Sequence record: NZ_CP090684.1
DNA: 64,000 nt
Direction: 5' to 3' (one strand)
Origin: a plasmid
Positions 6,133 through 22,483 of the stretch are shown here, piece by piece. How positions within the stretch are numbered: the first letter of the stretch is position 1; each line of letters begins with the position of its first letter. The position numbers were made by a program, and so were the translations under genes. The notes beneath the pieces were generated by a model that had not been told where the DNA came from, ran no database searches, and saw nothing but the letters and a program-made list of their open reading frames with translations.

Positions 6133-6232
6133 GGTTGCTCCGTGCGGTTTAAGGGTTTCAGGCTGACCGGGACCCTAGATTCCGAGTCCCTTCGTAGGGT
6201 TTGTTTTAGCCCGACCGGCAGCTGCTTCTGTG

Positions 6233-6405
6233 CTGCCGCCAGTCCCCTGAGTTCGTCGTCCCGGCGACAAAGGAGCCCGTAGCCGCGCCCGGACAAGGGC
6301 GTGCCCGGAGGCCGCATGCGGAGCGCAGCCGCAGGCGAGCACCGAACGGGCGAGGACACGGCGAAGCGAACCCTTGGCCGGGCGCGGCGAAGGGCTACTG
6401 TCGCG
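6233..6405 (+). promoter_or_regulatory. Frpo/ssi-like structured element, copy A; candidate single-stranded-DNA promoter
   Basis: Conserved block ctgccgcc...cccctgagttcgtcgtccc.gcgac. Hairpin arms gcgcccggacaaggg (6285-6299) and cccttggccgggcgc (6371-6385). -35-like TTGGCC at 6374-6379, a 16-nt spacer, then -10-like TACTGT at 6396-6401, followed by gtcgcg. The promoter points away from the downstream minus-strand gene. Confidence 0.5.
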
Positions 6406-6655
6406 AAAAGGGACGGCGGACTCAGGGGACTGGCGACGGCGTGTCCGCGCGAGAGGGCAAAAACGCCGCGCGGCGAGCGCCCTTCATGCGGCCGCAGGCC
6501 GCATCACTTCAGGGGTGAATGTCCGAAAGGGCCGAAGGCCCTTTTCGGCTCCCGCGCAAGCGGGCATATCGCTAATCATGCCGCTTGGCGGCACTAGATG
6601 GCGGCGCTGCTTCGTCTACAGCGAAGCGAAGAAAAAGGCCCTTTCGGGCCTTACG

Positions 6656-6847
6656 TCAGAAACCGGTCTGCTCCCAATGCGCGCGTATTAGAAGGTACTC
6701 CCGCAGCCCGGTGCAACGTCCGTCAACGATGCCTCCACGGCGCACTCTCACCCACCCGTGTCCCATGATCGAAAGCAGCCCTCCGGTGCACTGGTGGATG
6801 GCGACAATGCAGAGTTCGACGGTATTTGCGCTGTCCGCTGTCTTCAT
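6656..6847 (-). CDS. Hypothetical small protein (64 aa)
   Basis: ORF directly downstream of 6844..7113. It ends where repeat copy A begins. Confidence 0.3.
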   Translation of the reverse strand: MKTADSANTVELCIVAIHQCTGGLLSIMGHGWVRVRRGGIVDGRCTGLREYLLIRAHWEQTGF

Positions 6848-7113
6848 ACCTCGGTGCCTCCGATCCACTCCTTACCGATAAAGACATCTGCGCCGAAGGC
6901 GTCGATCACACACTCGCACGCACGCGGACTGCCGAGCAGACCGACAAGCCGCTCTATCGTCCACGCACCGTCTGCGGGCACTTCGAGCAATACTGAGCCT
7001 CCGAGGTCGCGGAGAATTAGCGGCGGGACCGCATCCGTGCTTTCGGCGCTCACGGTCAGCAGACTGTCCTTGGCGGGAACGATTTTTACACCGCAGCGAG
7101 TCGGATAAATCAC
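6844..7113 (-). CDS. Hypothetical protein (89 aa)
   Basis: ORF in a co-oriented minus-strand operon. Confidence 0.4.
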   Translation of the reverse strand: MIYPTRCGVKIVPAKDSLLTVSAESTDAVPPLILRDLGGSVLLEVPADGAWTIERLVGLLGSPRACECVIDAFGADVFIGKEWIGGTEV

Positions 7114-7122
7114 CTGATTCTC

Positions 7123-7305
7123 CTAGTAACCTAGCCAGTCGAGCACTTCCTTACCCTCATACTCCGGGCGATCGCCAACCTCGGCGAGAAAGGCAGAAAA
7201 GCCGCCTTCGACATCGTGGCGTCCAATTTCGGCCTCGGCTTCAGCACGCGTTACTGTCATATCGCATGCGTCTTCGTAGGTGTATGCGGTCATTCCAATC
7301 TCCAT
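7123..7305 (-). CDS. Hypothetical acidic protein (about 60-85 aa)
   Basis: ORF 7123..7380. The internal ATG at 7305 avoids overlap with the upstream gene. Confidence 0.35.
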   Translation of the reverse strand: MEIGMTAYTYEDACDMTVTRAEAEAEIGRHDVEGGFSAFLAEVGDRPEYEGKEVLDWLGY

Positions 7306-7868
7306 CAGTAAAGCTGCTGGGTCGTTCGCCTGATCCAGTTCCTCGCGACAGCTCCATATGCGTTCAGAGCGAGTCGCCATGCAGGCGCATTCAGGGCGAA
7401 CAGCAGATAGCGGTGCGCAGTCGGGTCGATGCCTCCAGTACGTCCGATATTCATAAGCGCGTGCGCAGCGACGAGCGGCGGAACGTCGCTTTCAGCATAT
7501 TCGGCGTCGAACTGCTCCTGTGTCATCCACTGTGTTACGACGCGTCCACGTTCGACCGCAAGTACCTGCGTCGTGGCGCGCGTCTGGTGGCTGTAGCCGA
7601 AGGACAAGCGGATCGCCGGGTTCTCGTTAGCGTCCAGGTACACCGAGCTGCGCGTAGTCGGACGCGCCGGGTCGGTTCCGGTGAGCTGGCATTCGGGCGC
7701 GTCCGGTTCACGGTTGAAGGGCTCAACGGTTGGAATGATATGCGCCTTTGTCCGGACACGGTTACCCGTTTCGGCGTGTGCATAGTGGACGAATTCCAGC
7801 GTATAGGAACGTCCGGCGCGGTCGATGTCGGCGTAGTGCTCGCGGGTGATGGTGCATGGAATTTGCAT
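7305..7868 (-). CDS. Hypothetical protein (187 aa)
   Basis: ORF. No recognisable motif. Confidence 0.45.
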   Translation of the reverse strand: MQIPCTITREHYADIDRAGRSYTLEFVHYAHAETGNRVRTKAHIIPTVEPFNREPDAPECQLTGTDPARPTTRSSVYLDANENPAIRLSFGYSHQTRATTQVLAVERGRVVTQWMTQEQFDAEYAESDVPPLVAAHALMNIGRTGGIDPTAHRYLLFALNAPAWRLALNAYGAVARNWIRRTTQQLY

Positions 7869-7877
7869 GATGGTCTC

Positions 7878-8078
7878 TCAATTCTCGCGGGCGTCGAGCG
7901 CGCCCTGCAGCGCGACGGCCTGGAATGCGTTCAGGCCGGCGGCGTCGATGAACGTTTCGCGGTTGAAAATCATCACCGCGTAAACGTTGGCAAGCTCGCG
8001 CGCCTCGGCGCAAAGCGTGGGGCATTCGTTCGTGCCTTCCGGGGCCGGTGACGTGCGCGCCAGATATTGATTGCGCAC
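7878..8078 (-). CDS. Hypothetical protein (66 aa)
   Basis: ORF in the operon. Confidence 0.35.
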   Translation of the reverse strand: MRNQYLARTSPAPEGTNECPTLCAEARELANVYAVMIFNRETFIDAAGLNAFQAVALQGALDAREN

Positions 8079-8161
8079 TCGATCTGCTCAATAGTGGTTA
8101 GCGACATGGCTCAGCCCCTTTCTTCCGAATTTTTGATATCCAGTGGTTTCACGTCGCGCCT

Positions 8162-8671
8162 TCAAAATCCGATCTGGCTCCAGTGAGTCACCATCTGCTT
8201 GTATTCACCGCGCTTCGCCCGAAGCCAACGAAGCATTCGCGCGACTGCGGCTCGCCTCCGCGCGACTTGTCGGAGCGCATGCGGACCGCCGCAACAGAGA
8301 TCCTCCTCTTCATCGCGTTGACTGGTTGCCTCATTAAGATAGCCTGCTGCGATCGCTCGAAGCGCCGCGTTTCCCCGTGCATGAATCGCAACCAAGTCGA
8401 ACTCTTTCCAAGGATCCTCCACCTGAAAGGCACGGGCGTACTCCGCTAGGAGCGCCCCGACGAAACTCCACTTACCTCTACGCAAGTACTTGCAAGCCAA
8501 GTCGTATGCAGACGGTCGATGGCTGGCTATGCCAATCGCTTGCTCGAGCTCGAGGTACAGCATGTGCAATCCAGGATATTGAAATCGATCTGGAACGGCC
8601 CTTTTCCTGCCATACGGTTTGAACTGGAAGCTGAGGGCATCCACCGCGTCGTGGTTCTCGATATGCGTCAT
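8162..8671 (-). CDS. Hypothetical protein (169 aa)
   Basis: ORF. First large gene after the duplicated 66-aa gene, copy 2. Confidence 0.45.
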   Translation of the reverse strand: MTHIENHDAVDALSFQFKPYGRKRAVPDRFQYPGLHMLYLELEQAIGIASHRPSAYDLACKYLRRGKWSFVGALLAEYARAFQVEDPWKEFDLVAIHARGNAALRAIAAGYLNEATSQRDEEEDLCCGGPHALRQVARRRAAVARMLRWLRAKRGEYKQMVTHWSQIGF

Positions 8672-8737
8672 GGGCGACTCCTATTCATCGTTAGGTTGGA
8701 CGGCCCCGATCGCTCAGGGCACGCTTCGAGTTACCTT

Positions 8738-8938
8738 TTAGAGTGGCATCGGCGACCAAGCGCCGGGGGCGTGGCGGTACAGCGTGACGCGCTTGCGCTG
8801 GCCGTTCACCACCGTCTCCACGCGGACCGCGCGAACATCGTCTTCCTCGCGGCGCCACCGGTGCAGTACACGGATTTCCGCGTTCAGGTCACAGCCCAGA
8901 AAGAAAGCGGCGATGCGGCGAAGAAGATTCGATTTCAT
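8738..8938 (-). CDS. Small basic protein (66 aa), copy 2 of the duplicated gene
   Basis: Identical protein to 5932..6132. Sits inside a near-identical block of about 560 bp (8733-9290 versus 5925-6480). Confidence 0.5.
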   Translation of the reverse strand: MKSNLLRRIAAFFLGCDLNAEIRVLHRWRREEDDVRAVRVETVVNGQRKRVTLYRHAPGAWSPMPL

Positions 8939-9038
8939 GGTTGCTCCGTGCGGTTTAAGGGTTTCAGGCTGACCGGGACCCTAGATTCCGAGTCCCCTCG
9001 TAGGGTTTGTTTCTGCCCGACCGGCAGCTGCTTCTGTG

Positions 9039-9211
9039 CTGCCGCCAGTCCCCTGAGTTCGTCGTCCCGGCGACAAAGGAGCCCGTAGCCGCGGCCGGAC
9101 AAGGGCGTGCCCGGAGGCCGCATGCGGAGCGCAGCCGCAGGCGAGCACCGAACGGGCGAGGACACGGCGAAGCGAACCCTTGGCCGGGCGCGGCGAAGGG
9201 CTACTGTCGCG
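9039..9211 (+). promoter_or_regulatory. Frpo/ssi-like structured element, copy B
   Basis: Near-identical to copy A. -35-like TTGGCC at 9180-9185, a 16-nt spacer, then TACTGT at 9202-9207. Confidence 0.5.
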
Positions 9212-9498
9212 GAAAGGGACGGCGAACTCAGGGGGCTGGCGAAGGGCGCTGCACACCGCGCGAGGGCAGAAACGCCGCGCGGCGAGCGCCCACAAGCGGC
9301 CGTAGGCCGCTTCACTTCAGGCGTTCGGGAGAAAGGGGCTCAGCCCCTTTCGTCCGGCGAAGCCGGGCCACGGACACGTGTGGTCCGACCACATGAGATC
9401 AGGGGCGATTTCGCCTTGGGTCCATTGCAGCGCTACGGTGCGAATTGCCGCGTTTCCACCGCAGGCGCCTCGAGATCGCTTGGCGAGCTGGAGTGCAC

Positions 9499-10580: not shown

Positions 10581-10583
10581 AGG

Positions 10584-12155
10584 TCACCGTTCAGTGGCGT
10601 TGGTCGATACAAGTTCCCTTGGCAGCATCACCCTGACCTGCTCCCGCACGGCCGCCAAACCTTCGGCGCTTGCGAGGTCATTGAAATCGGTCGGACGCCC
10701 GACGAGGGAGTTGAATACAGGCACGATCGCCTGGCATCTGAGGATCCGTGCTGCTTCGGCGGCTGAGTCGACACCTCTGTTGGACGTCGTGGACCGGACA
10801 TGCTTTCCGTCGCTCCCCGTGATCACATCAACGGTCACAGAACGAGCAACCCCGCAGCGGCATTCCACCGCAAGCCGGTACTTTCCGTGTGCGCTCGCAT
10901 GCCATTGCCCGTCCGCGATCGCATCGACGATTCTCACGGTTCGAGTCGCGTCCCGGGGTCCCGCGTTGACCTTGAAAGAGCATTCGGTCTCAGGCGCCAC
11001 GCTACCTAGTTCGGCAATCCGCGTGACGGCTGTCTCAAGAAAAAACTGGTCGTTGTCGGCGCAAACGAGCTTCGGTTGCCGCCGCGGCAGGACGTGCACG
11101 AGGTCTTTCGCAACCGCAACGAGGTTGCCTGCGTCGAAGCACACAACCACCGGTAGGCCCGTCGCTTCGTAAATCGACGCTCCCGTTGCGTACCCTTCCG
11201 AGAGCAGCACCGCCGGCGCGCTTACGAGGTCAGCGACACGTCGCGCGCCGATCAGGTGAAAGGCACCGGTCTTTCGCGCTCCCTTCGTGAATAGCTTGCT
11301 TCCGTCGGGACCGAGCGCCTGGACAGTTCGCAGCCGGTCTTGAATATCCCGTCCGGGAGCGATCAAGTATTCGTCGGATGTCGACTTGAAGTGCTCCAGG
11401 TTCAGCAGGGTAATCATGTCCATACCCCGGCCGCTCGCAATCCGGAGACCGTGCGCGGCTACCCCTTTGCGGGCCAAATACGGGTGCGCGTCACATTCGA
11501 CTTCCGGCAGGGTCACGAGCACCTTTAATGCCCTCGCCGCTATCTCGCGCTGCTCCTCGATCACCTTTGCAGCGCGCGCCGCACGGCGATCGCTATCGGC
11601 CGCCTCGAGTGCGGCGCGTTGCTCGCGTGTCAGGCGTCCCTTCTGAAAGCGCCACGGGCCAGATGCCCCCTTAAAATTTCGGATGTAACCCCGCCACTCC
11701 CCACCAACACGCTCGAGCTTGTAGCTTCCGCTGTTGCGTGGTCCGGCCGGCGTTTCGACTTTGGCCGTATGCCAGGCTCCATCCGCACGTACGGTGTCGG
11801 GGATAAGCCCAAAGGTACGCATCGCGAGGCTGAAGTCCGCGATCGCTTCCTCTGGGTCAATGCCGGCATTCGCAAGCACGGTCTCATCGACGATCCACTC
11901 GGCAAAAGGCGTCCGATCCATCGACGCGTCGATCCAGCAAAGGCGCCGATCGTAATCGAGATGCGCCCCGAGAGACCGAGCCTTCGGAATGTCTCTGGGG
12001 GGTACCGCAAGGTAAATTCGCTGCGCTTGCGATGCGTTGGACTTGATGTTTCCTTGCTGCCGTGACGATTTTCCCTGCGGAACTGAGGCGAGAAAGCGCT
12101 CAACGGCCCTGGCCTGCCCACTAGTCGAACGTTTTGCCATGGTTGTGCTGTACAT
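10584..12155 (-). CDS. DNA primase, Toprim-domain (conjugative TraC-type)
   Basis: 523 aa. The segment LSEGYATGASIYEATGLPVVVCFDAGNL is a Toprim acidic motif. N-terminal domain resembles the DUF5710 found in ICE/plasmid primases. Strong AAAGGAGGTG RBS 6 nt upstream of the ATG at 12155. Confidence 0.7.
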   Translation of the reverse strand: MYSTTMAKRSTSGQARAVERFLASVPQGKSSRQQGNIKSNASQAQRIYLAVPPRDIPKARSLGAHLDYDRRLCWIDASMDRTPFAEWIVDETVLANAGIDPEEAIADFSLAMRTFGLIPDTVRADGAWHTAKVETPAGPRNSGSYKLERVGGEWRGYIRNFKGASGPWRFQKGRLTREQRAALEAADSDRRAARAAKVIEEQREIAARALKVLVTLPEVECDAHPYLARKGVAAHGLRIASGRGMDMITLLNLEHFKSTSDEYLIAPGRDIQDRLRTVQALGPDGSKLFTKGARKTGAFHLIGARRVADLVSAPAVLLSEGYATGASIYEATGLPVVVCFDAGNLVAVAKDLVHVLPRRQPKLVCADNDQFFLETAVTRIAELGSVAPETECSFKVNAGPRDATRTVRIVDAIADGQWHASAHGKYRLAVECRCGVARSVTVDVITGSDGKHVRSTTSNRGVDSAAEAARILRCQAIVPVFNSLVGRPTDFNDLASAEGLAAVREQVRVMLPRELVSTNATER

Positions 12156-12367
12156 GAGACACCTCCTTTCTCAGAGGCGGATCGCGTCGAGCGGCAGGCA
12201 GCCGACCACAACGGTCAGCGCCGCTGCATGAAATTCTTTGCTTATCCCCTGCCCCGAAACCTTCCCGTTGCGTACCATCGCGTTCTCCGTTGGTTTTGAG
12301 CCGACCGGAACCCAAGATTCTGAGTCCCGGCGTACCGGCCGAGTCGACGCAGCGCTACCCGCAGCTG

Positions 12368-12523
12368 CTGCCGCCGTTCCCCTGAGTTCCTCGTCCCGCG
12401 AACTAGTCAGGTGAGGTGACCCGTCGGTCAAGGGGGCAAGCGAGGGGATAGGGGCGGGCAGTCGCGTAGCGACAACACGGCCCCGAGCGCCTTGACCGAC
12501 GGGCCGCCGAACCTACGGTCGCG
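12368..12523 (+). promoter_or_regulatory. Frpo/ssi-like structured element, copy C
   Basis: Perfect 14-bp stem: cccgtcggtcaagg (12420-12433) with ccttgaccgacggg (12490-12503). -35-like TTGACC at 12492-12497, a 16-nt spacer, then TACGGT at 12514-12519, then gtcgcg. Confidence 0.5.
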
Positions 12524-12652
12524 CGCAAGGACGAGGACAAAGGGGGGGACGGAGCTGCAGGGCAGGAATACCGGAGGCTCGGCGCCGCGCGGCGAGCGCC
12601 CATCGCGCGAAGCGCGACGCGACAGCGCGTCCGGATGGACGAAGAGCGAAGC

Positions 12653-12679
12653 GAAAAAAAAGCCCCGCTGGTGCGGGGC
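12653..12679 (-). terminator. Rho-independent terminator (minus strand) downstream of the 188-aa gene
   Basis: On the minus strand: hairpin gccccgc-accagc-ggggc followed by TTTTTTTT. Confidence 0.55.
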
Positions 12680-12957: not shown

Positions 12958-13524
12958 TCAATTTGCAACTCGCCGCTTCCGTTTCAAAATAAGAAACCGT
13001 ACACCTAGGCACACGAACAGGCCGCCCAGCAACAGCACACACATCGCCGCGTATCCAACTAGCACCCTTTTGACGAGATACCAATCGCGAGCTGCAGCGG
13101 TACAGCCCACAACCTCGCGGAAATCCGTCAGATCCTCCAGTGAGGGCACCACCCAACCAACTAAAGAAGCAAAGTGCGGAGCGAGTATCCATAGCAGTGC
13201 ACCAGCAGTCGCGATTGCGACGATATACGCGAAGAATGCGATCGCCCGACGCCGAAAAGACCACGATGTATCTGGCTGCTCGAGAGCCAGTTGGATGTGG
13301 TATCGGTCGGCGAGCTTAACGCTCGCGAATTCTTCCTCTATCGAACGACGCACGTCCGGCACCACCACACCATCCGATTCTGAGGAACGACTCGATGAAT
13401 CCCAGGCTCGCGATGGATATATGGTCGCCCCGGTCGCCGTGCGTAGTGCGTCGCGAAGGCGACCGGCACTGCGCACGGCGACGTGTTCCGGGGTGACGTG
13501 CTCATTCTGATTGGTCTCTCTCAC
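12958..13524 (-). CDS. Hypothetical membrane protein (188 aa)
   Basis: ORF with two C-terminal hydrophobic segments. It has its own sigma70-like promoter at about 13555-13590. Confidence 0.5.
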   Translation of the reverse strand: MRETNQNEHVTPEHVAVRSAGRLRDALRTATGATIYPSRAWDSSSRSSESDGVVVPDVRRSIEEEFASVKLADRYHIQLALEQPDTSWSFRRRAIAFFAYIVAIATAGALLWILAPHFASLVGWVVPSLEDLTDFREVVGCTAAARDWYLVKRVLVGYAAMCVLLLGGLFVCLGVRFLILKRKRRVAN

Positions 13525-13554
13525 GCATTAATTTCGTCCCGCTGGCGGGACGGT

Positions 13555-13590
13555 GGATAAATTTTAATCACCTTTGCACATGATTGCAAT
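13555..13590 (-). promoter_or_regulatory. Conventional sigma70-like promoter for the 12958..13524 gene
   Basis: On the minus strand: TTGCAA, a 17-nt spacer, then TAAAAT, followed by the palindrome gtcccgc-cag-cgggac ahead of the ATG. Confidence 0.4.
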
Positions 13591-13629
13591 TGATATGTAT
13601 GGAGCGGTTCACGCCCGAGGGAGGGGGAT

Positions 13630-13662
13630 CCAAGGGGGAACCGGGTCGGGGTTCCCCCTTGG
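13630..13662. repeat. Perfect 13-bp inverted repeat ccaagggggaacc / ggttcccccttgg with a 7-nt loop
   Basis: Seen directly in the gap between the ParB-like gene and the 188-aa gene. Confidence 0.5.
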
Positions 13663-13768
13663 TCGGCGTCCGCCGATATCCCGCTCGGCGCACGGCCCGG
13701 ACGATTTAGCGCCGCCAGGCGCGTTGAGGAAGGCGCCGTGCGACGCTGGATGGCGCGAGGTAGTGCAC

Positions 13769-13794
13769 AAAAAAAAACCCCGTCACCGACGGGG
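13769..13794 (-). terminator. Rho-independent terminator after the ParB-like gene
   Basis: On the minus strand: hairpin ccccgtcggtgacgggg followed by TTTTTTTTT. Confidence 0.6.
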
Positions 13795-13826
13795 CAAATT
13801 TGCGACTGCTCAGAGATATCGTTGAA

Positions 13827-16082
13827 TTAAGCCGCCGGCCGGCTTCCAGCGAGCACGTTCGGCGTCGGCGTCGCAAACGGCCACGGGAATCGCGCCGATT
13901 GAGTGACTCGGCCTCCCGCAAATTCCGTCGGCGCGACGTCGGCTGGCTTCACGCCGGTCTCAGCACCGTCCGGACTATCCGAGACCGTGTCAGGTTGCGC
14001 CGGTTCATCACCCAGCACTTCCTCGTGGGCTCCGAGATTGTCCGCCGTCGCGAGCTCGCCGTCCGCATCCTCCTGCTCATTACCGTCATCGCCGAAATAG
14101 GTTCGCGCGGTACGGACTTCGGCAGCAGCCATGAATTCGGGAAGCCAGTTCTTGTCGGCAAGCAGTTTTTCCGCTTCCTGCGCCGCCTCTGCCTTCTTCA
14201 TTTTCCCCAACCTCGCCCCATGCTCCTTCGAAATGACGTCACTCACGATCGCAACGATTCGATCCTTCGAGACATGATTAAGGTACGACTCGCAGGTGGG
14301 CTTCCAGTACTTCGTGAGGTCAAGTTCCAGAGCGCCGGCGAGCGCATTGATAGCATTCGGTTCTTCCGTGCGGCTCACACCATTCAGACTCAGAGCCGTG
14401 CAAACGGCGAGAATGTTCAGGACTACCGCTTGCGGCTGTTCGAGCAACCATCCGAACAGTTCGTTCGGGTTTTTCGGAATCATGCGAGTGACCGCCAGCA
14501 CCGACCGTGCAAGCTGGTCGTACTGGGGCAACTCCTTGATGCCGGGCACAGCTCGATCCGCGCTGTACATCGGCTGCTGTTCCTTGATCTGCACAGCACT
14601 GAGGTCGCTATAGTGCTCATAGACGAACTCCAGCAACAGTCGGTGTGCGACAGCGACGAGCGCAACGCCGGGGTTCGCAACAAGCGCGGTTTGAACCGCT
14701 GCCGTGCGGTGCGACGTCAGATTGAGCAGCAGTTTCTCCGAATGCAGCCCCTTAACCTTCTTGGTCAGGCTACGCGGGACCGACTGACCTGCCTCTTCCA
14801 TCATCGCACGCGCTTGCGCCCGATTCTCGCGACGCACCAAGCCGCGCACGATTTCAAGTGCTCCGTCGTAGCCGACCGTGACGATCGCCCCGCTCACTTT
14901 CATCTGCTCCGAGGTGAACTCTCCGTCGCGGTCGTCCATTTCCTGCATGATCGCGTAAAGCTGATTGCACTCGCCGTCCAGCTTTTCCCGGTCCTCGTCG
15001 CTGAGGTACGCAGCATCGCCCACTTCGGCATCGTAGCTTGCCTCGATTTTCTCGCTGAGTTCGTCGGCCCGCATTTGAGCTTCTTCGTATTTTGCCTTTT
15101 CGTCGCTAGTGAGCGGAACCGGAGTGGAATAAAGTTGCGTAAACTGGTTGCGGTCGTCATAGTCGAAGGTCGGTCGGGCTTCAACCCAATTCCAGCCTTC
15201 GGCCTTGATCGATTCGACCGTGCAGGCGATTTTCTCATCGAACAATCGAGCCAGCAGCTCACGATTGACGATGAAACCGTCATCTTGCTCCGCGAACAGG
15301 TCGCGCTCCACCTCTCCCCCGGCTGCTTCGTATGCGGCGACAGTCACGAATCGCACCATCCGGTCCCCGAACGACAGTTTCTCGCCTTTCAGCACATTGC
15401 GCAGTGCGTTAGGGCTCTGGTTCCAGTGTCCCTTTGCACCGAACCACGCCGCTTCCTGTCGCTCGTGGTTGTCGGTGATGGCAAGCGCCTTGATCTGTTC
15501 GAGGCTGATGACGTCCGCAGCAAACAGTTCAAAGAGCTTCGGGGAAACGTTCGCGAGCTTCAATCGACCGGCGACGACCTTCGGACTGACATTGAAGACT
15601 GCCGCAATGAACTCAGGGCTTCGGCCCTCGTCTGCAAGCGCCTTGTAGGCAGCGAATTGGTCTGCAGGGTGCGGGGGTACGTGCAAGTCATTTTCTGACG
15701 CACTAGCAAGGATCGCCTGCGCCTCCGAAATCTCGATGCAACGCACTTCATCGTCCATCGACATGTAGCCGCGCTCGACGTTGAACAGGAACGCTTGACG
15801 GCGCGTTTCCCCCGCGTCGACGCCCCACTCCTGCGCCTTCTTCGCCCTCTGCGGCATTTTATGCACAACGAGGTTCTGTAGTTGACCGACAGCAAGCATG
15901 TTGTCTGCGATTGCCACAATGGTCGCTTGATCGCGCTTCTTCTTACGCTGGTTATACGGCGAAGCGACCAGCCGTTTCAACGGAATCATCACTTCCCGTT
16001 GCCCTGCGCGAAGCATGTTCGGCATGTCGGCGGGCAGTGCATCGGCGTTCACGTTGGCGTCTTGTGCAATCACGGTTTTCAT
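13827..16082 (-). CDS. ParB/Srx-like nuclease-domain protein (751 aa)
   Basis: N-terminal segment VASPYNQRKKKRDQATIVAIADNMLAVGQLQNLVVHKMPQ is typical of the ParB N-terminal/sulfiredoxin fold. Long acidic C-terminal region. ATG at 16082 with a GAGGAA RBS. The longer ORF to 16298 runs into the repeat and is rejected. Confidence 0.7.
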   Translation of the reverse strand: MKTVIAQDANVNADALPADMPNMLRAGQREVMIPLKRLVASPYNQRKKKRDQATIVAIADNMLAVGQLQNLVVHKMPQRAKKAQEWGVDAGETRRQAFLFNVERGYMSMDDEVRCIEISEAQAILASASENDLHVPPHPADQFAAYKALADEGRSPEFIAAVFNVSPKVVAGRLKLANVSPKLFELFAADVISLEQIKALAITDNHERQEAAWFGAKGHWNQSPNALRNVLKGEKLSFGDRMVRFVTVAAYEAAGGEVERDLFAEQDDGFIVNRELLARLFDEKIACTVESIKAEGWNWVEARPTFDYDDRNQFTQLYSTPVPLTSDEKAKYEEAQMRADELSEKIEASYDAEVGDAAYLSDEDREKLDGECNQLYAIMQEMDDRDGEFTSEQMKVSGAIVTVGYDGALEIVRGLVRRENRAQARAMMEEAGQSVPRSLTKKVKGLHSEKLLLNLTSHRTAAVQTALVANPGVALVAVAHRLLLEFVYEHYSDLSAVQIKEQQPMYSADRAVPGIKELPQYDQLARSVLAVTRMIPKNPNELFGWLLEQPQAVVLNILAVCTALSLNGVSRTEEPNAINALAGALELDLTKYWKPTCESYLNHVSKDRIVAIVSDVISKEHGARLGKMKKAEAAQEAEKLLADKNWLPEFMAAAEVRTARTYFGDDGNEQEDADGELATADNLGAHEEVLGDEPAQPDTVSDSPDGAETGVKPADVAPTEFAGGRVTQSARFPWPFATPTPNVLAGSRPAA

Positions 16083-16188
16083 AGCATTCCTCAAAATTAA
16101 CATTGAAGTTGTGACGGGACCGCCGGGCCCCAAGATTCTGAGTCCCGGCGTAAGCCGTTCTGTCGAGTCGGCGGGCCGCGCTCCGCAG

Positions 16189-16344
16189 CTGCCGCCGTTC
16201 CCCTGAGTTCGTCGTCCCGCGACGATCGGAGCGAGGACCAGTGCATCGTCAAGGGGTGACGCGCGGGTCGGTGCGGGAGGGAGCGCAGCGACTGACACGG
16301 TCCCGCGCGCCCTTGACGTTGCGCTGGCCGCAGCTACAGTCGCG
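16189..16344 (+). promoter_or_regulatory. Frpo/ssi-like structured element, copy D
   Basis: Stem cgtcaagggg (about 16245) pairs with cccttgacg (about 16309). -35-like TTGACG at 16313-16318, a 16-nt spacer, then TACAGT at 16335-16340, followed by gtcgcgg pairing with the upstream ccgcgac. Confidence 0.5.
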
Positions 16345-16731
16345 GAGGTGGACGGCGAACGAGGGGGACGGAGATGAAGGCAGCACCCGTACCACGACGA
16401 GCCAGAACGCCCCGCGCGGCGAGCGCGCTATCCGAGCGGCGCGACGTCAGGAGCGCCGAGAGGCTGGAGGGATGGCCCGCGCCGGGGCAAGTCCGCGGGA
16501 CGCGGCGCAGCCCCAAGAGCGGAAGTGTTTGGTCTCCGGGCCGCCGCGTGCGCGGCTTGCGTGTCGGCCGGTAGTGCCGGCCGGCGCGCAAGGTGCGGCG
16601 GCCCGGCTGGCTTCCGGGCCCAGGTCCACCGTCAGTGCAGCGTCGGTAGGTCCGCGCCTTCTTCCGTTCCCACGCCCCACGAGAATTCGGCCAATACGTA
16701 TGGGGCGAGCGTCGCGCTCGCCCAACGATAG

Positions 16732-16923
16732 TTACGCGCTTTGCTCAGTGCGATCTCGGTTCTGCACGTGTTTCGTGATCGCGCGTCGCGCGCTAACTAA
16801 TGTCCTGCGGCGCTCTAGATCGAAACCTCCATCATTCCGCATGATCTGTGTTTGGACTGTCTCAACTCCCCGCTCGATCGAGACATGGATGAAATGCCCC
16901 TTGTAGCCAATGGTGTGAAACAT
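16732..16923 (-). CDS. Hypothetical small protein (63 aa)
   Basis: ORF whose start is adjacent to the stop of the 117-aa gene. Confidence 0.3.
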   Translation of the reverse strand: MFHTIGYKGHFIHVSIERGVETVQTQIMRNDGGFDLERRRTLVSARRAITKHVQNRDRTEQSA

Positions 16924-16924
16924 A

Positions 16925-17278
16925 TCAGACCACCTCAGAGACAGGGAAACCGGCTTCAGTGAGCTCACGGCGCGCATCGTCATCCCAGGTCGTCGGCGAC
17001 TCGGACTCACAGCGATACGCGTAGGCGATTGCCGCTTCGCGTGCGTCGGCCGACAGACCGCCGGTTACTTTGACCACGACCTCCCAGTATGTCCCGAAGT
17101 CGTGGGCGCTGCTCTTGATGAACAGGCTGGCACCGTCGGGGGGTTCGCCCAAGGTGCGCCTGATTTGGTTGATGAAGGCCGTGCATTCGGCTCGGCTACG
17201 CTCCAGGTAGCGCATGTCGCCCACTTGCGCACATGCCTCATCACATGGCGCTGGTCCAATCTCAATCGTTTCCACCAT
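16925..17278 (-). CDS. Hypothetical acidic protein (117 aa)
   Basis: AGGAGAG RBS 8 nt upstream of the ATG at 17278. Acidic composition. Confidence 0.5.
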   Translation of the reverse strand: MVETIEIGPAPCDEACAQVGDMRYLERSRAECTAFINQIRRTLGEPPDGASLFIKSSAHDFGTYWEVVVKVTGGLSADAREAAIAYAYRCESESPTTWDDDARRELTEAGFPVSEVV

Positions 17279-17374
17279 CGTACAGCTCTCCTAAAAAATA
17301 TAGACTGACCGGGCCCCAAGATTCTGAGTCCCGGCGTGAAAGGTTCTGGCGAGTCGGCGGGCCGCGCTTCGCAG

Positions 17375-17532
17375 CTGCCGCCGTTCCCCTGAGTTCGTCG
17401 TCCCGCGACGCCTCGAGCGACGAGCCGGCGACGCGTCAAGGAGTCAAGCGCGGGGTGGGCGCGGGAGGGAGCGCAGTGACCGACACGGACCCCGCGCGCC
17501 TTGACGCGGCAGAGGCCGACGCTACGGTCGCG
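17375..17532 (+). promoter_or_regulatory. Frpo/ssi-like structured element, copy E
   Basis: Stem cgcgtcaagg (17433-17442) pairs with ccttgacgcg (17499-17508). -35-like TTGACG at 17501-17506, a 16-nt spacer, then TACGGT at 17523-17528. Outer stem cccgcgac pairs with gtcgcggg. Confidence 0.5.
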
Positions 17533-17911
17533 GGGAATGGACGACGAACGAGGGGGACGGGGGTGCGGACAGTGCTTGCTCCGTGACGAGCCGGAACGCC
17601 CGCGCGGCGAGCGCGCTATCCGAGCCGGCGCGACGCGAGGAGCGCCGCGAGGCTGGAGGGATGGCCCGCGCCGGGGCAAGTCCGCGGCACGCGGCGCAGC
17701 CCCAAGAGCGGAAGTGTCCGGATTCCGGGCCGCCGCGTGCGCAGCTTACGTGCCGGCCGGCAGCGCCGGCCGGCGCGGAAGGCGCTGCCCGGCGGCCCGC
17801 ATGTCACCGGCGATCCCGGTCGAGGACTCGGATCGCCGTCCCTGCCAATTGCGGTCCGATGGCGGTCCCATGGAGTGCGGTCGAGCGAGTTGAAGCTCAT
17901 GAAGATGACGG

Positions 17912-18325
17912 CTACCCGTCCCCCTGCTGCCCGCTTCGGCGGGCCTGGGTAGTGCGCGCAGGAGTTCGACACACGCGGTGGGCATCCATAGATCCATCGA
18001 ACGCCGCGGGTGGATCGCTCACTCGGCGTCCGAAGTCAACAATGGCGCGGTCAACGTTCGACACGAAGAATTCAACAGCAATTGCCTGAACAGTCGGAGC
18101 AAGCACGCCCGCGTTCGGGTAAAGCCGGTCGAGCGTCGCCATTTGGCGGAGGACCAGTCTGCTAATGTCTTTCCACGTTCTGTGGGGAGCACGTTGCCAC
18201 GCGTATAAGGCGTCAGTAACGATCGTGTTGAGGATGATGCGAATTTGTGCGTTCCGAACGCGGTTCGATGTGGCAAGCGGCCACTCTCGCGGCAACGTCA
18301 CGGAATACAAGTTGGATTCCTTCAT
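17912..18325 (-). CDS. Hypothetical protein (137 aa)
   Basis: ORF. Confidence 0.4.
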   Translation of the reverse strand: MKESNLYSVTLPREWPLATSNRVRNAQIRIILNTIVTDALYAWQRAPHRTWKDISRLVLRQMATLDRLYPNAGVLAPTVQAIAVEFFVSNVDRAIVDFGRRVSDPPAAFDGSMDAHRVCRTPARTTQARRSGQQGDG

Positions 18326-18384
18326 GATGGATTGCGTGACGCGGACACCGGATTGAGTGCCCGCGTCCGATCAGTTTTTTCAGT

Positions 18385-18918
18385 TTAGAGGTCCGCCCAT
18401 GCAACGTCGGCTTTCGTTTCCACTTCGCCGCCGAACATATGCTCGACCTGATACCGCACGCGCGCACGTGCACCGTCGATCACAAGCGTTCCGCGACCAA
18501 AGTAGCGGCCCAGCAGAGCTCGTTGTTCTTCCGCCCGGAGCTTGCCGCGCCACTTACCGTTGCAGTTCCCGATGCGATTTACGAGGAATAGGCGCAGTTT
18601 CGCTGCCTGTTCGTGCTGGTTCGGCGGCGGCGTCAGCACAAGCACGCCGTCCCGGTCAATCGGCGCGAGGTTTGTGTCTCGGTAGGTGCGCTTGTATTGG
18701 GTTGGGCCGATAGCCAGCCCCCAATCGACCGTATGCTGAATCCGTTGCCGTGCCTCTGATGAAGAGCGGGCAACCACCGAATCGTATGCGCGGCCGGCGC
18801 GCGACTTCCGGATATTGAAGAACGGGACACCCGGTCGCGATTCGAATCGTTCGACGTCGATTTGATAGTGGCCATGCTTGCCACCACCCTCCCATCGCTC
18901 AACTAGTTGCGCAGTCAT
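18385..18918 (-). CDS. Hypothetical protein (177 aa)
   Basis: ORF. Confidence 0.45.
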   Translation of the reverse strand: MTAQLVERWEGGGKHGHYQIDVERFESRPGVPFFNIRKSRAGRAYDSVVARSSSEARQRIQHTVDWGLAIGPTQYKRTYRDTNLAPIDRDGVLVLTPPPNQHEQAAKLRLFLVNRIGNCNGKWRGKLRAEEQRALLGRYFGRGTLVIDGARARVRYQVEHMFGGEVETKADVAWADL

Positions 18919-19418
18919 GCTGCCTCCACACGACGGCCGAACAGCATCAGTGCGACTGCTTCGAGGCGTGCTGCTGTATCGATAAGGACGCCATCGTCGT
19001 CGGCAAGCACGGTGATGTAGCTGGATTCGCCGCGTGGACGACCAGCCGCATCTCGCGCAACGTGTACTACACTGACGCCGGCCGCCTGCAGCCCGCGCCG
19101 GGCATATTCCGCAAAGGTGTCTGCCTCGCCGTGCTCCCTTTCAACCCTTCGCATACGCTGCTGAATGCGTTCGATCTTGCGGACGGCAGCGCGCAATTCG
19201 CCCAATTCCGGGGTGAGACTGTTCAACACGACGCGATGGCCGAATGCCACTGCATGGTCGCGACTGACGAAGGCGCGAAGCTCAATCGTCCCCGAATACT
19301 CGTACCCCACCGCACTGACCACCGCGCGTTGAATCTCAACGACGAGTTCAGTAACGTTGTGGTCCCGTTCGACGTACAGCATGGCATGCAGTTGGGGTTT
19401 CGTTGCGCGTCGTGTCAT
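18915..19418 (-). CDS. Hypothetical protein (168 aa)
   Basis: Start MTRRATKPQLHAM at 19418. The longer ORF that runs into the repeat is rejected. Confidence 0.45.
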   Translation of the reverse strand: MTRRATKPQLHAMLYVERDHNVTELVVEIQRAVVSAVGYEYSGTIELRAFVSRDHAVAFGHRVVLNSLTPELGELRAAVRKIERIQQRMRRVEREHGEADTFAEYARRGLQAAGVSVVHVARDAAGRPRGESSYITVLADDDGVLIDTAARLEAVALMLFGRRVEAA

Positions 19419-19511
19419 TGCATAGCTCCGTGGATGTTTGCTGACCGGGCCCCAAGATTCGGAGCCCTTCGTAGGGGTTTCCTTTCGGCGGACGCTGATT
19501 GGGTCGCAGCG

Positions 19512-19667
19512 TTGCCGCCGTTCCCCTGAGTTCATCGCCCTGCGACTCCGGAAGTTCGAGGAGGCGTCGCGTCAAGGAGGCAAGGGCGGGGGCGGTGCGG
19601 GACGAAGCGCAGCGAAGGACACGGCCCCGCACGCCTTGACGCGAGGCTGACGAGGACTACGGTCGCA
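19512..19667 (+). promoter_or_regulatory. Frpo/ssi-like structured element, copy F
   Basis: Stem gcgtcaagg pairs with ccttgacgc. -35-like TTGACG at 19636-19641, a 16-nt spacer, then TACGGT at 19658-19663. The outer stem here is ctgcgac with gtcgcag, a compensatory change relative to ccgcgac/gtcgcgg in copies D, E and G. Confidence 0.5.
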
Positions 19668-20196
19668 GAACTGGGCGATGACGGGGAACGGTGCGTAACG
19701 CGTGACCTGCGATCGCGCGAAAGGCCCGCGCGGGTAGCGCCTGTTCGCGCAGCGAAGCGGAGCGACTGGAATGGGCGGCAAGCGCCGGGCGAAGCCCTGG
19801 AGCGTTCAGTTTGTTTCCCGGTCCGTGGCGAGTTTCCTCGCCACGGATCCGGCTCGATGCCGACAGCTTTACCGCTGAAAGGCCTGATATTGGGCAGCAA
19901 CGACCACTTAGGTCGCGCGTGTGGCGCTATGGTCGCCCCCGATCCCCCGACGCGTACTCCGAAATCGAGGGGGCGACCGCGCAAACCGCCCTCCTCTCGC
20001 GCTTTCGACGCTATTGGCGCCTGGTCCCGCATCGGCCCGATGCGACGAGCCGCAGCGAGTGCGAGTACCCTGCAATGGCAAAAAACCCCACAGCTCCGAC
20101 CGCGCGCACTTACGGGCGACCGTCGCTGCCGCCATCTCGGTGTTGTTTGACTGAAGGTGCTGGGCACGGACCTTGAGAATTCCAGCACTCGTTTGC

Positions 20197-21990
20197 TCAA
20201 AGCACGAACGGCAGGTCTGCTTGCGCACTGGAGGTCGTTGCCTTGTGTGCCCATGCAGTGCGCGCCGGCGACGGCAACGCCGCAAAACGCACCGCGCGGC
20301 GAAGCAGATCAGCAACGGCATAGTCGAGCGTTAGTCCAAGCCGATCTTTGAAATCTGTACGACGCGCGATCTCGTCGTGTTCTCGTTGCTGTGCTCGTGA
20401 CAATGTCAGCGTGCCATAGTTTAGGTACCAACGGTACCCAGCCGTGATGCCTCCAGGGAAGAATCCGGCATCATGCATTTCGACCAGGCGCTCGAATTCG
20501 AAGTCCAGGATCATCTCGGCCGATTCCTCGTCGACTTCGAACCGCTTACCGGTCGGCACCTCCCAAGTGGTTCGCCCGCCCTTGAGATGGTGAACTTTCC
20601 GAGCACATGGAGAGTCTTCAGTCAAAGCCTCGAACAGCGGATCTCGGAACCCTGTCCACTGATCCGCGGTGTCGTCCCAGTGCTCTCCGACATGCAGAAA
20701 CATAGGCTCCGGCATTGGCTGCGGCGCGACCGGCATAACGTCCGGAACATCGTATCGAACGCCGTTGCAGTAGATGTCACGATAGTCAGCCCATATCGCG
20801 AAGGGTGGTGCCAGGCCTTGAAGCGATTGCATAGCATCGACGGCAATCATCATCGTCAAGGGCAACGTTTGAAATTTGGGCCGCGATCCAGTGCGCTTTG
20901 CGCGGACCAGCTCGTCTCGGTCGATCGTCATCATGTACCGCACAAGCTCTCGCACAGTGGCCGCGTTGAATGTGTCCGGCTCTATGCAGATGTAGCCTTC
21001 TTTAATGGTACGACCGACCCAATTTCGGCGGGACCAGTCATACCGAATCGCACGGATGAACTTGTTGAGGCGGTTCAGTCCACTCGCATACGCGTAGCGA
21101 TCCTCATCAAATTTGATCATCTCTTCGAGCGATCGGTCTTCCGCCTGTTGGCACGTCCAACATCCTGTCCGCGCGTCGCAGTGCCCCCTGCGCTTCCGTT
21201 TTCCGGCCGACGCCTCTTCGAATGAGAGGTCTGAGACGATCGCGCAGCTGCTGTTGCCTGCGTGCGCATAGATTCGCGAGGTTTCTCGGAAGTCCGTGTA
21301 GGTAGACCGAAGACCTGACGTTACTTCGCCGATGTACTCCCAGACGTCCTCAGTCTCCCAGTCAGCGATCACACACAGCGTGAGGTCACCCTCGTCGTTG
21401 CGCACGGGTGTATCGGCACGATCGCCACGGGCTTGCATGCCGGCCTTCCGCTTCGCGCTTTCGGCAAACCTCGATCCGAGGCATACGACCGGCTCAGCAT
21501 ACCCCTGCTGCTTCGCAGCGCGCGCGAGTTGATTTCGGAACACTCTGGAAGGCTCGATCTTCAAGCTCACTGAGCAGTCCGAGTTCGTACCTGCATAGCT
21601 TGGGAGCGCTCGACCGCTGAGAATCGTGACCTGCCAAGAGGTGGCCAGTGACGGCGCGACCGTTTGCACGTGGACCCTGACGTTGTGCCGCTTTCCGTAC
21701 GCGTGCATTTTCGCCAACTCCCGCTGGGCGTGCGCTACGATCTCAGGCGACTCGACCCCGGTGTCAGCGGTAACGACGTAGACGACCGCCTCGCCTCCTT
21801 CTGCCGCGTGTCGACGGGCGGCTTCGAGAGTCAGCGCCGCTACGACGCCACTGTCCTTACCGGCGCTGAACTGGCAGATCGCGATACGGCGCTCGTGAAA
21901 TAGCCGCCGCAAGGCCGCGACGGCACGCTCTACTCGCTGATCAAGCGTCGGCCGTTGTTGAAGATGAGGAAACAAATCGATCGTTTGCAT
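20197..21990 (-). CDS. PAPS-reductase-like / PP-loop ATP-pyrophosphatase family protein (597 aa) with a CxxC segment
   Basis: The PP-loop SAGKDSGVVAAL is an SGGKDS-type motif. A later CWTC motif resembles DndC/IbrA-like enzymes that partner with ParB-like proteins. Confidence 0.65.
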   Translation of the reverse strand: MQTIDLFPHLQQRPTLDQRVERAVAALRRLFHERRIAICQFSAGKDSGVVAALTLEAARRHAAEGGEAVVYVVTADTGVESPEIVAHAQRELAKMHAYGKRHNVRVHVQTVAPSLATSWQVTILSGRALPSYAGTNSDCSVSLKIEPSRVFRNQLARAAKQQGYAEPVVCLGSRFAESAKRKAGMQARGDRADTPVRNDEGDLTLCVIADWETEDVWEYIGEVTSGLRSTYTDFRETSRIYAHAGNSSCAIVSDLSFEEASAGKRKRRGHCDARTGCWTCQQAEDRSLEEMIKFDEDRYAYASGLNRLNKFIRAIRYDWSRRNWVGRTIKEGYICIEPDTFNAATVRELVRYMMTIDRDELVRAKRTGSRPKFQTLPLTMMIAVDAMQSLQGLAPPFAIWADYRDIYCNGVRYDVPDVMPVAPQPMPEPMFLHVGEHWDDTADQWTGFRDPLFEALTEDSPCARKVHHLKGGRTTWEVPTGKRFEVDEESAEMILDFEFERLVEMHDAGFFPGGITAGYRWYLNYGTLTLSRAQQREHDEIARRTDFKDRLGLTLDYAVADLLRRAVRFAALPSPARTAWAHKATTSSAQADLPFVL

Positions 21991-22084
21991 GGCTGCTCTA
22001 TCCGCATGTTGGGTGGCGCCGGGCCCATAGATTCCGAGTCCCGGCGTAAGCCGTTCTGTCGAGTCGGCGGGGCCGCTGCTGCGC

Positions 22085-22238
22085 CTGCCGCCGTTCCCCT
22101 GAGTTCGTCGTCCCGCGACGATCGGAGCGAGGACCGGAGCAACGTCAAGGGCGACGCGCGGGGCGGTGCGGGATGGAGCGCAGCGACTGACACGGCCCCG
22201 CGCGCCTTGATGGTGCGCAGGCCGCAGCTACAGTCGCG
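22085..22238 (+). promoter_or_regulatory. Frpo/ssi-like structured element, copy G
   Basis: -35-like TTGATG at 22207-22212, a 16-nt spacer, then TACAGT at 22229-22234, then gtcgcgg. Stem caagg...gcgcgggg pairs with ccccgcgc...ccttg. Confidence 0.5.
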
Positions 22239-22404
22239 GAGATGGACGACGAATGAGGGGGAAGAAGGAGTCAGGGCGTGACGTCGCGCGAGACAGAACG
22301 CCGCGCGGCGAGCGCCCTTTCACGCGGCAAGCGCCAGCGGCGCCGCGTGACACAATTTCGGCCTTTTAGTGCGCAGGACGGTAGAACAGCGCACTCGTCA
22401 GATA

Positions 22405-22459
22405 CCGTCGCGCGGTACGGGTGGGGCTGGCGCACCGGTCCACCCGTACCGCGCGACGG
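22405..22459. repeat. Perfect 20-bp inverted repeat (ccgtcgcgcggtacgggtgg ... ccacccgtaccgcgcgacgg) with a 15-nt spacer
   Basis: Seen directly. It lies downstream of the 22484..22774 gene, at the distal end of repeat copy G. Confidence 0.6.
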
Positions 22460-22483
22460 CTGGTTCCTAACGCGGATCCGCGG

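Follow-up and report, generated by a model that had tools for sequence, protein, structure and literature searches.

A stretch of 64,000 nucleotides from a plasmid (sequence record NZ_CP090684.1), here called the window, carries in its predicted conjugative leading region seven copies of a long imperfect hairpin element, each placed in front of a unit of minus-strand genes and each holding a -35 and a -10 hexamer, 16 nt apart, on the 3' arm of its stem. Judged by sequence, structure and placement, these modules are quite likely a new sequence family of single-stranded-DNA (ssDNA) promoters, analogous to the Frpo and ssi elements of enterobacterial plasmids but not members of either.

Between 5.4 and 22.8 kb of the window, minus-strand genes follow one another, separated by gaps of 0.5-0.8 kb. 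A repeat search and an nhmmer profile found the same seven homologous modules, all on the plus strand, one in each of seven of these gaps and none elsewhere in the 64 kb:

6234..6432, plus strand: module A, of the long-loop "A-type", with -35 TTGGCC at 6374-6379 and -10 TACTGT at 6396-6401; about 100 nt upstream of the minus-strand gene starting at 6132.
9040..9237, plus strand: module B, a near-identical duplicate of A, with -35 TTGGCC at 9180-9185 and -10 TACTGT at 9202-9207; upstream of the gene starting at 8938.
12369..12547, plus strand: module C, with -35 TTGACC at 12492-12497 and -10 TACGGT at 12514-12519; upstream of the DUF5710/Toprim gene 10584-12155.
16190..16370, plus strand: module D, with -35 TTGACG at 16313-16318 and -10 TACAGT at 16335-16340; upstream of the large gene 13827-16082, annotated as ParB-like in a 97%-identical plasmid.
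17376..17559, plus strand: module E, with -35 TTGACG at 17501-17506 and -10 TACGGT at 17523-17528; upstream of genes 16732-17278.
19513..19687, plus strand: module F, with -35 TTGACG at 19636-19641, -10 TACGGT at 19658-19663 and the compensatory pair CTGCGAC/GTCGCAG; upstream of genes 17912-19418.
22086..22263, plus strand: module G, with -35 TTGATG at 22207-22212 and -10 TACAGT at 22229-22234; upstream of the PAPS-reductase-like gene 20197-21990.
6462..6484, plus strand: conserved box AACGCCGCGCGGCGAGCGCCC, 3' of the hairpin, with counterparts at 9271-9293, 12581-12603, about 16407, about 17595, about 19721 and 22297-22319.

The pattern CCTTGNNN-N16-TANNNT occurs seven times in the window, always on the plus strand and always within a module; 0.37 occurrences are expected from shuffled sequence, and none of 100 shuffles reached seven. 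Modules A and B are the product of a recent duplication (99% identical over 300 nt), and the window therefore holds six independent copies. The duplicated 300 nt (5932-6231 and 8738-9037, in direct orientation) take in a 66-amino-acid gene together with its leader and a portion of each of the two modules; recombination between the two repeats could delete the intervening 2.8 kb.

An earlier note on this DNA, made from the letters of the window, had placed seven modules in these gaps, each with a -35/-10 motif of exactly 16 nt spacing, and had quoted complementary stem pairs including the ctgcgac/gtcgcag change in copy F. All of these are present, the motif taking the form TTGNNN-16-TANNNT in all seven modules, and the genes from about 5.4 to 22.8 kb do read toward the candidate origin of transfer (oriT), where a nic site is predicted at 4252/4253. 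The layout it gave for the module was right as to motif and stems; it missed that the conserved block is itself paired, that the hairpin is accordingly larger, and that a conserved box lies 3' of it. Its statement that every operon is preceded by a module holds for seven units, but not for the unit 12958-13524 or the gene 22484-22774, which have none.

Read 5' to 3' on the plus strand, a module begins with a nearly invariant block (CTGCCGCCGTTCCCCTGAGTTCGTCGTCC; about 35 nt across the family), which is the 5' arm of a long lower stem. Next come CGCGAC, which pairs with a GTCGCG directly after the -10; a purine-rich stretch (..AAAGGAG..) opposite the -10; and a variable arm with an invariant CAAGG at its end. 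After an apical domain of 45-80 nt, the 3' arm carries CCTTG, whose TTG starts the -35; a 16-nt spacer paired to the variable arm; CTAC(N)GT, with its A unpaired in nearly all minimum-energy folds; GTCGCG; a bulge of 4-6 nt found on the 3' arm alone; and GGACGRCGAAC..GGGGGA, which pairs with the conserved block and closes the lower stem. The hairpin is about 190 nt long, and outer closing pairs extend the structures to about 270 nt, at -91 to -112 kcal/mol. Folded as ssDNA, module D has an energy of -67.3 kcal/mol (z = -7.5).

With homologues from ten plasmid loci, the set comprises 51 distinct copies. The box 3' of the hairpin, AACGCC(C)CGCGCGGCGAGCGC, is found in 46 of these at a nearly constant 61-76 nt beyond the -10 and contains a 10-12-nt palindrome; in some copies it joins the outer closing pairs. 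An operator, an outer stem and a priming signal are candidate roles for it. The part of the predicted 5' untranslated region that separates the module from the start codon has a conserved leader motif, GATTC(Y)GAGTCCC, and small hairpins (at 6162-6215, 8968-9021, 12300-12353 and 19440-19493, and in the left flanks of D, E and G).

Base pairing was assessed in a MAFFT alignment, not fitted to structure, of 23 copies less than 93% identical to one another and drawn from eight replicons. The structure of 51 pairs was specified by hand, and the controls were the same pairs with their partners slid by 1-3 columns and a set of 500 shuffles. Pairing was found in 84.8% of cells, against 36-45% with partners slid; 106 cells were changed on both sides, against 19-40 (counts of cells, which are not independent events); and the covariation score was 0.272, against 0.05-0.07. 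None of the 500 shuffles reached the observed values for pairing or covariation. In the stem that holds the -35 and the spacer, compensatory changes are seen in 11 of 17 pairs.

The two strands are not equivalent. The plus strand is the more stable in all 51 copies (mean -66.7 vs. -56.0 kcal/mol), whereas control windows over 4-34 kb show no strand bias (-38.0 vs. -38.1), nor do control perfect palindromes at operon ends. Within the defined helices there are 70 G:T cells to 28 A:C cells, and minimum-energy folds contain on average 2.96 G:T pairs in the plus strand and 1.17 in the minus strand (p = 0.0009); a crude count over whole arms (85 vs. 62) gives a weak skew (p = 0.07), which becomes clear once limited to helices or minimum-energy pairs. 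One-sided changes in the lower stem are nearly all from T:A to T:G, with the 5' arm held constant, so that this arm must be under an additional sequence constraint, as it should be if the opening 35 nt of each transcript are copied from it. The stable ssDNA hairpin and the covariation of the folded plus strand anticipated in the earlier note are thus both found, the first in the z score of copy D and in the preference for the plus strand in 51 of 51 copies, the second in excess of every slid and shuffled control.

Covariation and tolerance of G:U pairs would fit RNA equally well, and the modules could in principle encode a structured non-coding RNA of the plus strand, antisense to the operon leaders. 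This is very unlikely. No plus-strand promoter was found 5' of the module; Rfam gave no match in the 64 kb at the gathering score, and none on the modules (4-24 kb) even at E up to 5; and mapped transcripts of a related plasmid, pBCJ2315 (discussed below), include no plus-strand start site near its module. Such an RNA would also leave unexplained both the constant orientation of the modules to oriT and an internal -35/-10 of fixed spacing.

That motif has a constancy of its own. In the 23 representatives the TTG of the -35 and T-12, A-11 and T-7 of the -10 are invariant, T-7 staying fixed although its pairing partner switches between A and G (pair 42-188). Sigma-70 is most exacting at just these positions. 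All copies have a spacer of 16 nt (two short-loop Ralstonia copies were judged by eye), although its sequence varies freely. In the fold the -35 is fully duplex, while the -10 faces an asymmetric loop with A-11 free in nearly all structures; a -35/-10 pair with promoter-like spacing is thus found on the 3' arm of a stem, oriented into the downstream genes, as in ssDNA promoters. There is also a divergent subclass that keeps the CAAGGG/CCCTTG stem and the 16-nt spacing and has a different lower stem and a -10 of TATGCG; examples (locus L008, 11756-11883; locus L007, 8407-8554) lie upstream of other leading-region operons, in pBCJ2315 and a Pandoraea plasmid.

All 51 copies have a single orientation relative to the relaxase: in the ten loci the modules are on the strand opposite the neighbouring genes, and the relaxase genes lie beyond the modules and are directed away from them. 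The arrangement is the same whether the relaxase is of the MOBF type or a MOBP relaxase accompanied by MobC (Ralstonia pHA4-1), and it recurs in the Tn4371-like integrative elements that Citrobacter and Pseudomonas plasmids carry. A blastn search with copy D returned 138 plasmid records, 113 of them typed as conjugative, the match always falling in unannotated DNA; the hosts were Burkholderia (109), Paraburkholderia, Pandoraea, Mycetohabitans, Ralstonia, Pseudomonas, Delftia, Citrobacter and a few others. A covariance model of a 131-position core gave 68 strong matches, at 66-122 bits (16-44 bits for the reverse strand of the same sites), with up to 12-13 copies per plasmid (pOLGA2 and a P. 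dioscoreae plasmid). In a scan of genome contigs, where most of the matches listed were due to chance, profile-confirmed copies among them came from Caballeronia, Burkholderia and Paraburkholderia, those of Caballeronia and Burkholderia being co-oriented within each contig; the spread of the family beyond plasmid collections is thus under-sampled.

Placement relative to genes is equally regular. Of the 21 modules in pBPSE01 and the P. dioscoreae plasmid, 20 precede an annotated start codon on the opposite strand by 79-109 nt, and the remaining one by 335 nt. The adjacent genes are unrelated to one another: they encode ParB-like, DUF5710/Toprim, PAPS-reductase-like, methyltransferase and DUF3560 proteins, and many small proteins without assigned function. 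Since the distance to the start codon is fixed in front of such different genes, the module must travel together with its leader.

So many copies on one replicon (the 12-13 of pOLGA2 and the P. dioscoreae plasmid), together with the recent duplication of A and B, might recall a selfish dispersed repeat without function for the plasmid, similar to miniature inverted-repeat transposable elements or repetitive extragenic palindromes. This reading was rejected as having almost no chance of being correct, given the strictly single orientation, the confinement to the leading region with no copy elsewhere in the 64 kb, the fixed distance to start codons, and compensatory evolution across genera.

Assignment of the modules to a leading region depends on the position of oriT. 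The first 23 kb of the window are 97% identical to a Burkholderia multivorans conjugative plasmid typed as having a MOBF relaxase and MPF_F, whose annotation gives a MobF relaxase and a type IV coupling protein (T4CP) in the order seen in the window. At the left end of the window, on the minus strand, are the start of the relaxase region, a gene for a 157-amino-acid protein and the coupling-protein gene, which reads away from oriT and has the relaxase gene to its left, at the window edge; two small accessory genes and then an A+T-rich gap follow it. The relaxase reading frame at the edge (10-246, minus strand) is just 78 amino acids long and runs into a stop codon at 10-12; the matching position of the 97%-identical plasmid is occupied by an IS5-family element, which divides the relaxase gene there (locus L001, 4342-5334). 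The two features on which the assignment turns are:

1288..3315, minus strand: type IV coupling protein gene (TrwB/TraD-like; Pfam TrwB_AAD_bind, E = 4e-66).
4231..4253, plus strand: predicted nic region of oriT, by similarity to R388, consisting of the inverted repeat GCACG-gta-CGTGC and then GTCATGTCT/G.

The core of the R388 nic region (GTGCGTNNTGTCTR) has one match in the window, on the plus strand at 4240-4253, where 0.04 would be expected, and the predicted nick falls between 4252 and 4253 of that strand. The window reads GCACGgtaCGTGCGTCATGTCT/G (4231-4253, plus strand) where R388 reads GCGCACCgaaaGGTGCGTATTGTCT/A, the latter confirmed at 100% identity in R388. For R388 the essential stretch is nt 12-25, within which position 20 can vary freely, and only a purine is accepted at position 26 (PMC4176350). 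The window candidate is identical at 11 of these 14 positions, one of the mismatches being at the tolerant position 20, and has a purine (G) at position 26, after the predicted nick. The stretch is kept in three related plasmids (pBPSE01, P. dioscoreae and Pandoraea), and in the window it sits in the gap adjoining the relaxosome and coupling-protein genes.

In R388 the relaxase, coupling protein and TrwA genes are on one strand, nic is on the other, and the leading genes are on the first strand. Gene order relative to nic in the window is that of R388; it is mirrored in the F plasmid, where the nic sequence is on the strand that templates the leading genes. An oriT of the MOBF (R388/TrwC) type comprises an inverted repeat, a conserved single-stranded stretch of about 8 nt and a nick, on the strand that lets the relaxase genes enter last, and the predicted site here has this layout. 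Because an R388-like nic core is on the plus strand and the gene geometry matches R388 and mirrors F, the plus strand is predicted to be the one transferred, as the earlier note had assumed, with the modules in the leading region. They lie 2.0 to 17.8 kb behind the predicted 5' end of the transferred strand, and each gene unit would therefore enter the recipient before its own module.

The oriT region (4090-4260) also contains an A+T-rich stretch, a conserved inverted repeat, GGTGGTGCAatcTGCACCAC (about 4090-4109), and TTGTGGTGCGC (about 4177-4187). A small plus-strand gene after oriT (4429-4743) would be the first to enter, but its strand is the wrong one for transcription from ssDNA. Between this gene and the first leading gene, a non-coding stretch of 660 nt contains two regions with strong plus-strand folds (4760-5030, -88.9 kcal/mol; 5100-5400, -76.4 kcal/mol), each better than the minus strand and neither with a -35/-10 motif; they might be priming or termination signals.

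No minus-strand sigma-70-like promoter was found in any of the seven module gaps, either by a consensus scan or by a looser one (at least 8 of 12 positions), and the module motifs are the sole promoter-like sequences there; conventional promoters in the gaps would have counted against the original proposal. On each of the three points examined that could have refuted it (the transferred strand, the covarying hairpin and conventional promoters), the outcome favours that proposal. The unit 12958-13524, which has no module, has a terminator-like hairpin and a conventional-looking promoter:

13561..13589, minus strand: sigma-70-like promoter TTGCAA-17-TAAAAT, found by promoter scan in the sole inter-unit gap without a module (13525-13826).

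The same gap contains a perfect hairpin (13620-13662) and a terminator (13795-13777). Several of the module gaps have terminator-like hairpins for the preceding unit. Long perfect palindromes near the stops of upstream genes (22405-22460, 19810-19850 and 16556-16600), in which both strands fold equally, are probably terminators without T-runs.

Some evidence on expression in established cells comes from pBCJ2315 of B. cenocepacia J2315, which has one canonical module and one divergent copy. Differential RNA sequencing (dRNA-seq) of biofilm-grown J2315 lists 104 start sites on this plasmid (PMC4603805 Table S2). Among them are none on the minus strand anywhere in the leading region (66,876-79,508 of NC_011003.1) and none on the plus strand at the places from which the module motifs would drive transcription in duplex DNA. 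Such silence is what is predicted for a promoter restricted to ssDNA. The silent region includes a gene annotated as a DNA methyltransferase (73,946-74,599), presumably that for M.BceJIII.

The same silence could reflect repression, and one alternative is that the modules act on double-stranded DNA, as an operator/promoter cassette for a plasmid repressor (compare the R388 network), or else as the structured 5' leader of a minus-strand transcript from an upstream promoter. Conservation of the 5'-arm block far beyond the needs of pairing, and the palindromic box (CGCCGCGCGGCG) that accompanies most copies, would suit an operator. Compensatory changes, though, imply base pairing, which an operator does not need, and for a leader the wrong strand folds: it is the plus strand, not the mRNA-sense strand, that is the more stable in 51 of 51 copies and that carries the G:T pairs. 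There is no minus-strand promoter-like site upstream of the modules, and neither version accounts for an invariant TTG-16-TA...T. Both are considered improbable.

Another possibility is that the hairpins serve only as single-strand initiation or roadblock signals, priming or pacing synthesis of the complementary strand (as sso and ssi elements do) without expressing the adjacent genes. In F, DNA synthesis is primed from Frpo transcripts, and ssp2 acts as a roadblock that stalls conversion; moreover, the apical domain of the A-type modules is found in R388 and also in a 2.5-kb RepL/MOBV plasmid, where no gene that it could express lies next to it. What this leaves out is the relation to genes: the fixed 79-109 nt to start codons of unrelated genes and the shared leader, the lack of any other promoter found in the seven gaps, and the insulation of the units by terminator-like hairpins. 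A role confined to initiation is therefore unlikely, although initiation as such is compatible with promoter function and does not exclude it.

For the preferred reading, that of ssDNA promoters, the following course of events is proposed. During conjugation the plus strand would be nicked at about 4252/4253 and its 5' end would enter the recipient first, each minus-strand gene unit arriving ahead of its own module. Once inside, the module would fold into its long imperfect hairpin. The 3' arm would then present, in the upper stem, a duplex -35 (TTGNNN) and, exactly 16 nt beyond it, a -10 (TANNNT) lying in an internal loop that leaves A-11 unpaired. Host sigma-70 RNA polymerase, recognizing these, would use the 5' arm as template and run down the stem toward oriT, through a shared leader of about 130 nt and into the genes, giving early expression in the recipient. 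For module D, the geometry of the -10 predicts a start site near 16215 on the minus strand and a leader of about 133 nt. Synthesis of the complementary strand would then remove the hairpin; in the duplex the motif points away from the genes, and expression of the units would cease. It may also be that complementary-strand synthesis is primed by the transcripts and slowed by the hairpins, effects shown for Frpo and ssp2 in F.

Several points weigh against this reading. The family is known from sequence and predicted folds, from which the promoter function is deduced, and the nic site that makes the plus strand the predicted transferred strand is itself predicted by similarity. The counted cells are not separate events, and covariation and the tolerance of G:T pairs are equally compatible with a plus-strand RNA. 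TACNGT makes a weak -10, the G+C-rich 6-bp helix that comes after it would need to melt, and two divergent relatives, with TATGCG, lack T-7. The start-site evidence from pBCJ2315 is negative, comes from one canonical copy, and would look the same under repression. Finally, given the stop in its relaxase frame and the split relaxase gene of its closest relative, the plasmid may not be self-transmissible at present.

Pfam searches found no families for most of the small leading-region proteins. Outside this region, the segment 34000-43000 has a G+C content of 0.66-0.73, against about 0.60 in the rest of the window, which suggests a segment of different origin.

ssDNA promoters have so far been validated in enterobacterial IncF and IncI plasmids alone, and how widely they occur and how they should be defined are open questions (PMC11541004, PMC12672017). 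The family described here is a large natural mutagenesis series, with at least 68 copies from Burkholderia, Paraburkholderia, Caballeronia, Pandoraea, Ralstonia and Tn4371-like elements, which reveals the positions that need pairing and those at which the base is fixed. It also supplies a search model for annotating leading regions, and marks those of clinically relevant Burkholderia plasmids, with their many unannotated genes, as candidate early-expressed loci for establishment and anti-defence; one relative carries the single-strand methyltransferase M.BceJIII.

The hairpin-promoter mechanism is known from E. coli plasmids, Frpo having reportedly been described by Masai and Arai in 1997. Frpo1 and Frpo2 were validated in vivo as hairpin promoters ahead of the leading-region operons of F (PMC9849209); pESBL has six hairpin promoters, in three classes and with mapped 5' ends, likewise validated and situated before leading-region operons (PMC12672017); and a BLAST-based survey of ssDNA promoters was made by Samuel et al. 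(PMC11541004). None was found for the Burkholderia group in searchable papers: no Burkholderia family is mentioned in the ssDNA-promoter literature (PMC9849209, PMC12672017, PMC11541004) or in the study of M.BceJIII (PMC7736820).

In form the modules resemble Frpo1 and Frpo2 of F and ssi1-3 of ColIb-P9 and pESBL, which are likewise long imperfect hairpins of the transferred strand, upstream of leading operons directed toward oriT, with a -35/-10 rebuilt by the stem, several copies per leading region, and a predicted switch-off by complementary-strand synthesis. They differ in being G+C rich, in their mostly betaproteobacterial hosts, in number (7 to about 13 per plasmid), and in having an almost invariant 35-nt block on the 5' arm and a shared leader; they also differ in being known only as sequences. 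Membership in the Frpo/ssi class 1 family was rejected: neither nhmmer (--max, E up to 10) nor the covariance model (E up to 1) gave a match on the F leading region, and local alignments with the Frpo1 and Frpo2 hairpin regions, located in F by folding, scored no better than shuffles. The label "Frpo/ssi-like" used in the earlier note hence applies to geometry and, as far as can be judged, to mechanism, but not to sequence family, since no similarity is detectable.

A second comparison is with class 2, which includes ssp2 (the yfgB/ardB promoter of F) and the ardA and klcA promoters of pESBL. As folded here, F ssp2, which has experimental support as a single-strand promoter, shows the geometry of the modules: TTGCAT-15-TAAGAT is on the 3' arm of the strand that is transferred, and the middle of its -10 is unpaired. 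A profile of the A-type modules matches ssp2, on its transferred strand, exactly at and 5' of the -35, in GCGGCGAAGCGTACCCTTGC (E = 3.6e-4 over about 38 nt; locus L011, 6518-6556, minus strand), a match seen with this profile only and not with the whole-family profile or the covariance model. ssp2 shares GCGGCGAAGCGTACCCTTGC with an element of R388, and 17 of 18 nt with module A. Unlike the modules, ssp2 has a 15-nt spacer and a -10 of TAAGAT rather than TACNGT, and beyond the approximately 38 nt the rest of the hairpin does not align. A distant relationship to ssp2 and class 2 is possible, homology and convergence being indistinguishable over so short a stretch.

The R388 (IncW) element just mentioned, which is unannotated, lies in the leading region, on the nic-bearing strand and upstream of a leading operon, and has the apical domain of the A-type modules (CAAGGG..GCCGCAYGCGGAGCGCAGCC..GGCGAGCACCGAACGGG..GGCGAAGCGNACCCTTG); it is without the conserved lower stem and the TACNGT -10. 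A literature search on the apical-domain sequence found no published description or name for it. Module A as query returned 320 plasmid records, in many of which the apical segment alone matches. The apical domain (6290-6380 in the window) is about 75-90% identical in many of these 320, including R388 and plasmids of Xanthomonas, Comamonas, Salmonella and Citrobacter (in the retrieved loci it is found, for example, at 9713-9810 of L012 and 1218-1302 of L133). In the 2.5-kb RepL/MOBV plasmid it might be a single-strand origin. The ssoA and ssoU origins of rolling-circle plasmids are orientation-specific folded ssDNA that host RNA polymerase reads as a promoter. An sso makes a short lagging-strand primer, however, and is not placed before genes; the modules are likened to it by function, not sequence.

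A tentative extension of these comparisons, with perhaps one chance in three of proving right, is that the Burkholderia modules are one branch of a wider, undescribed superfamily of folded single-strand elements whose shared apical domain is found in R388 (IncW), in plasmids of Xanthomonas, Comamonas and enterobacteria and in one tiny plasmid of rolling-circle type, and is probably related to F ssp2. Differing basal stems and leaders would have been grafted onto the apical domain. In the Burkholderiaceae the result would be a portable cassette of hairpin promoter plus leader, behind which new establishment and anti-defence genes are plugged in, and the presence of 7 to about 13 copies before unrelated genes would thereby be explained. 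Such a superfamily would supply general rules for the reading of hairpins by sigma-70: a duplex -35, a fixed 16-nt spacer, an unpaired A-11, and a bulge at the start site on the non-template arm.

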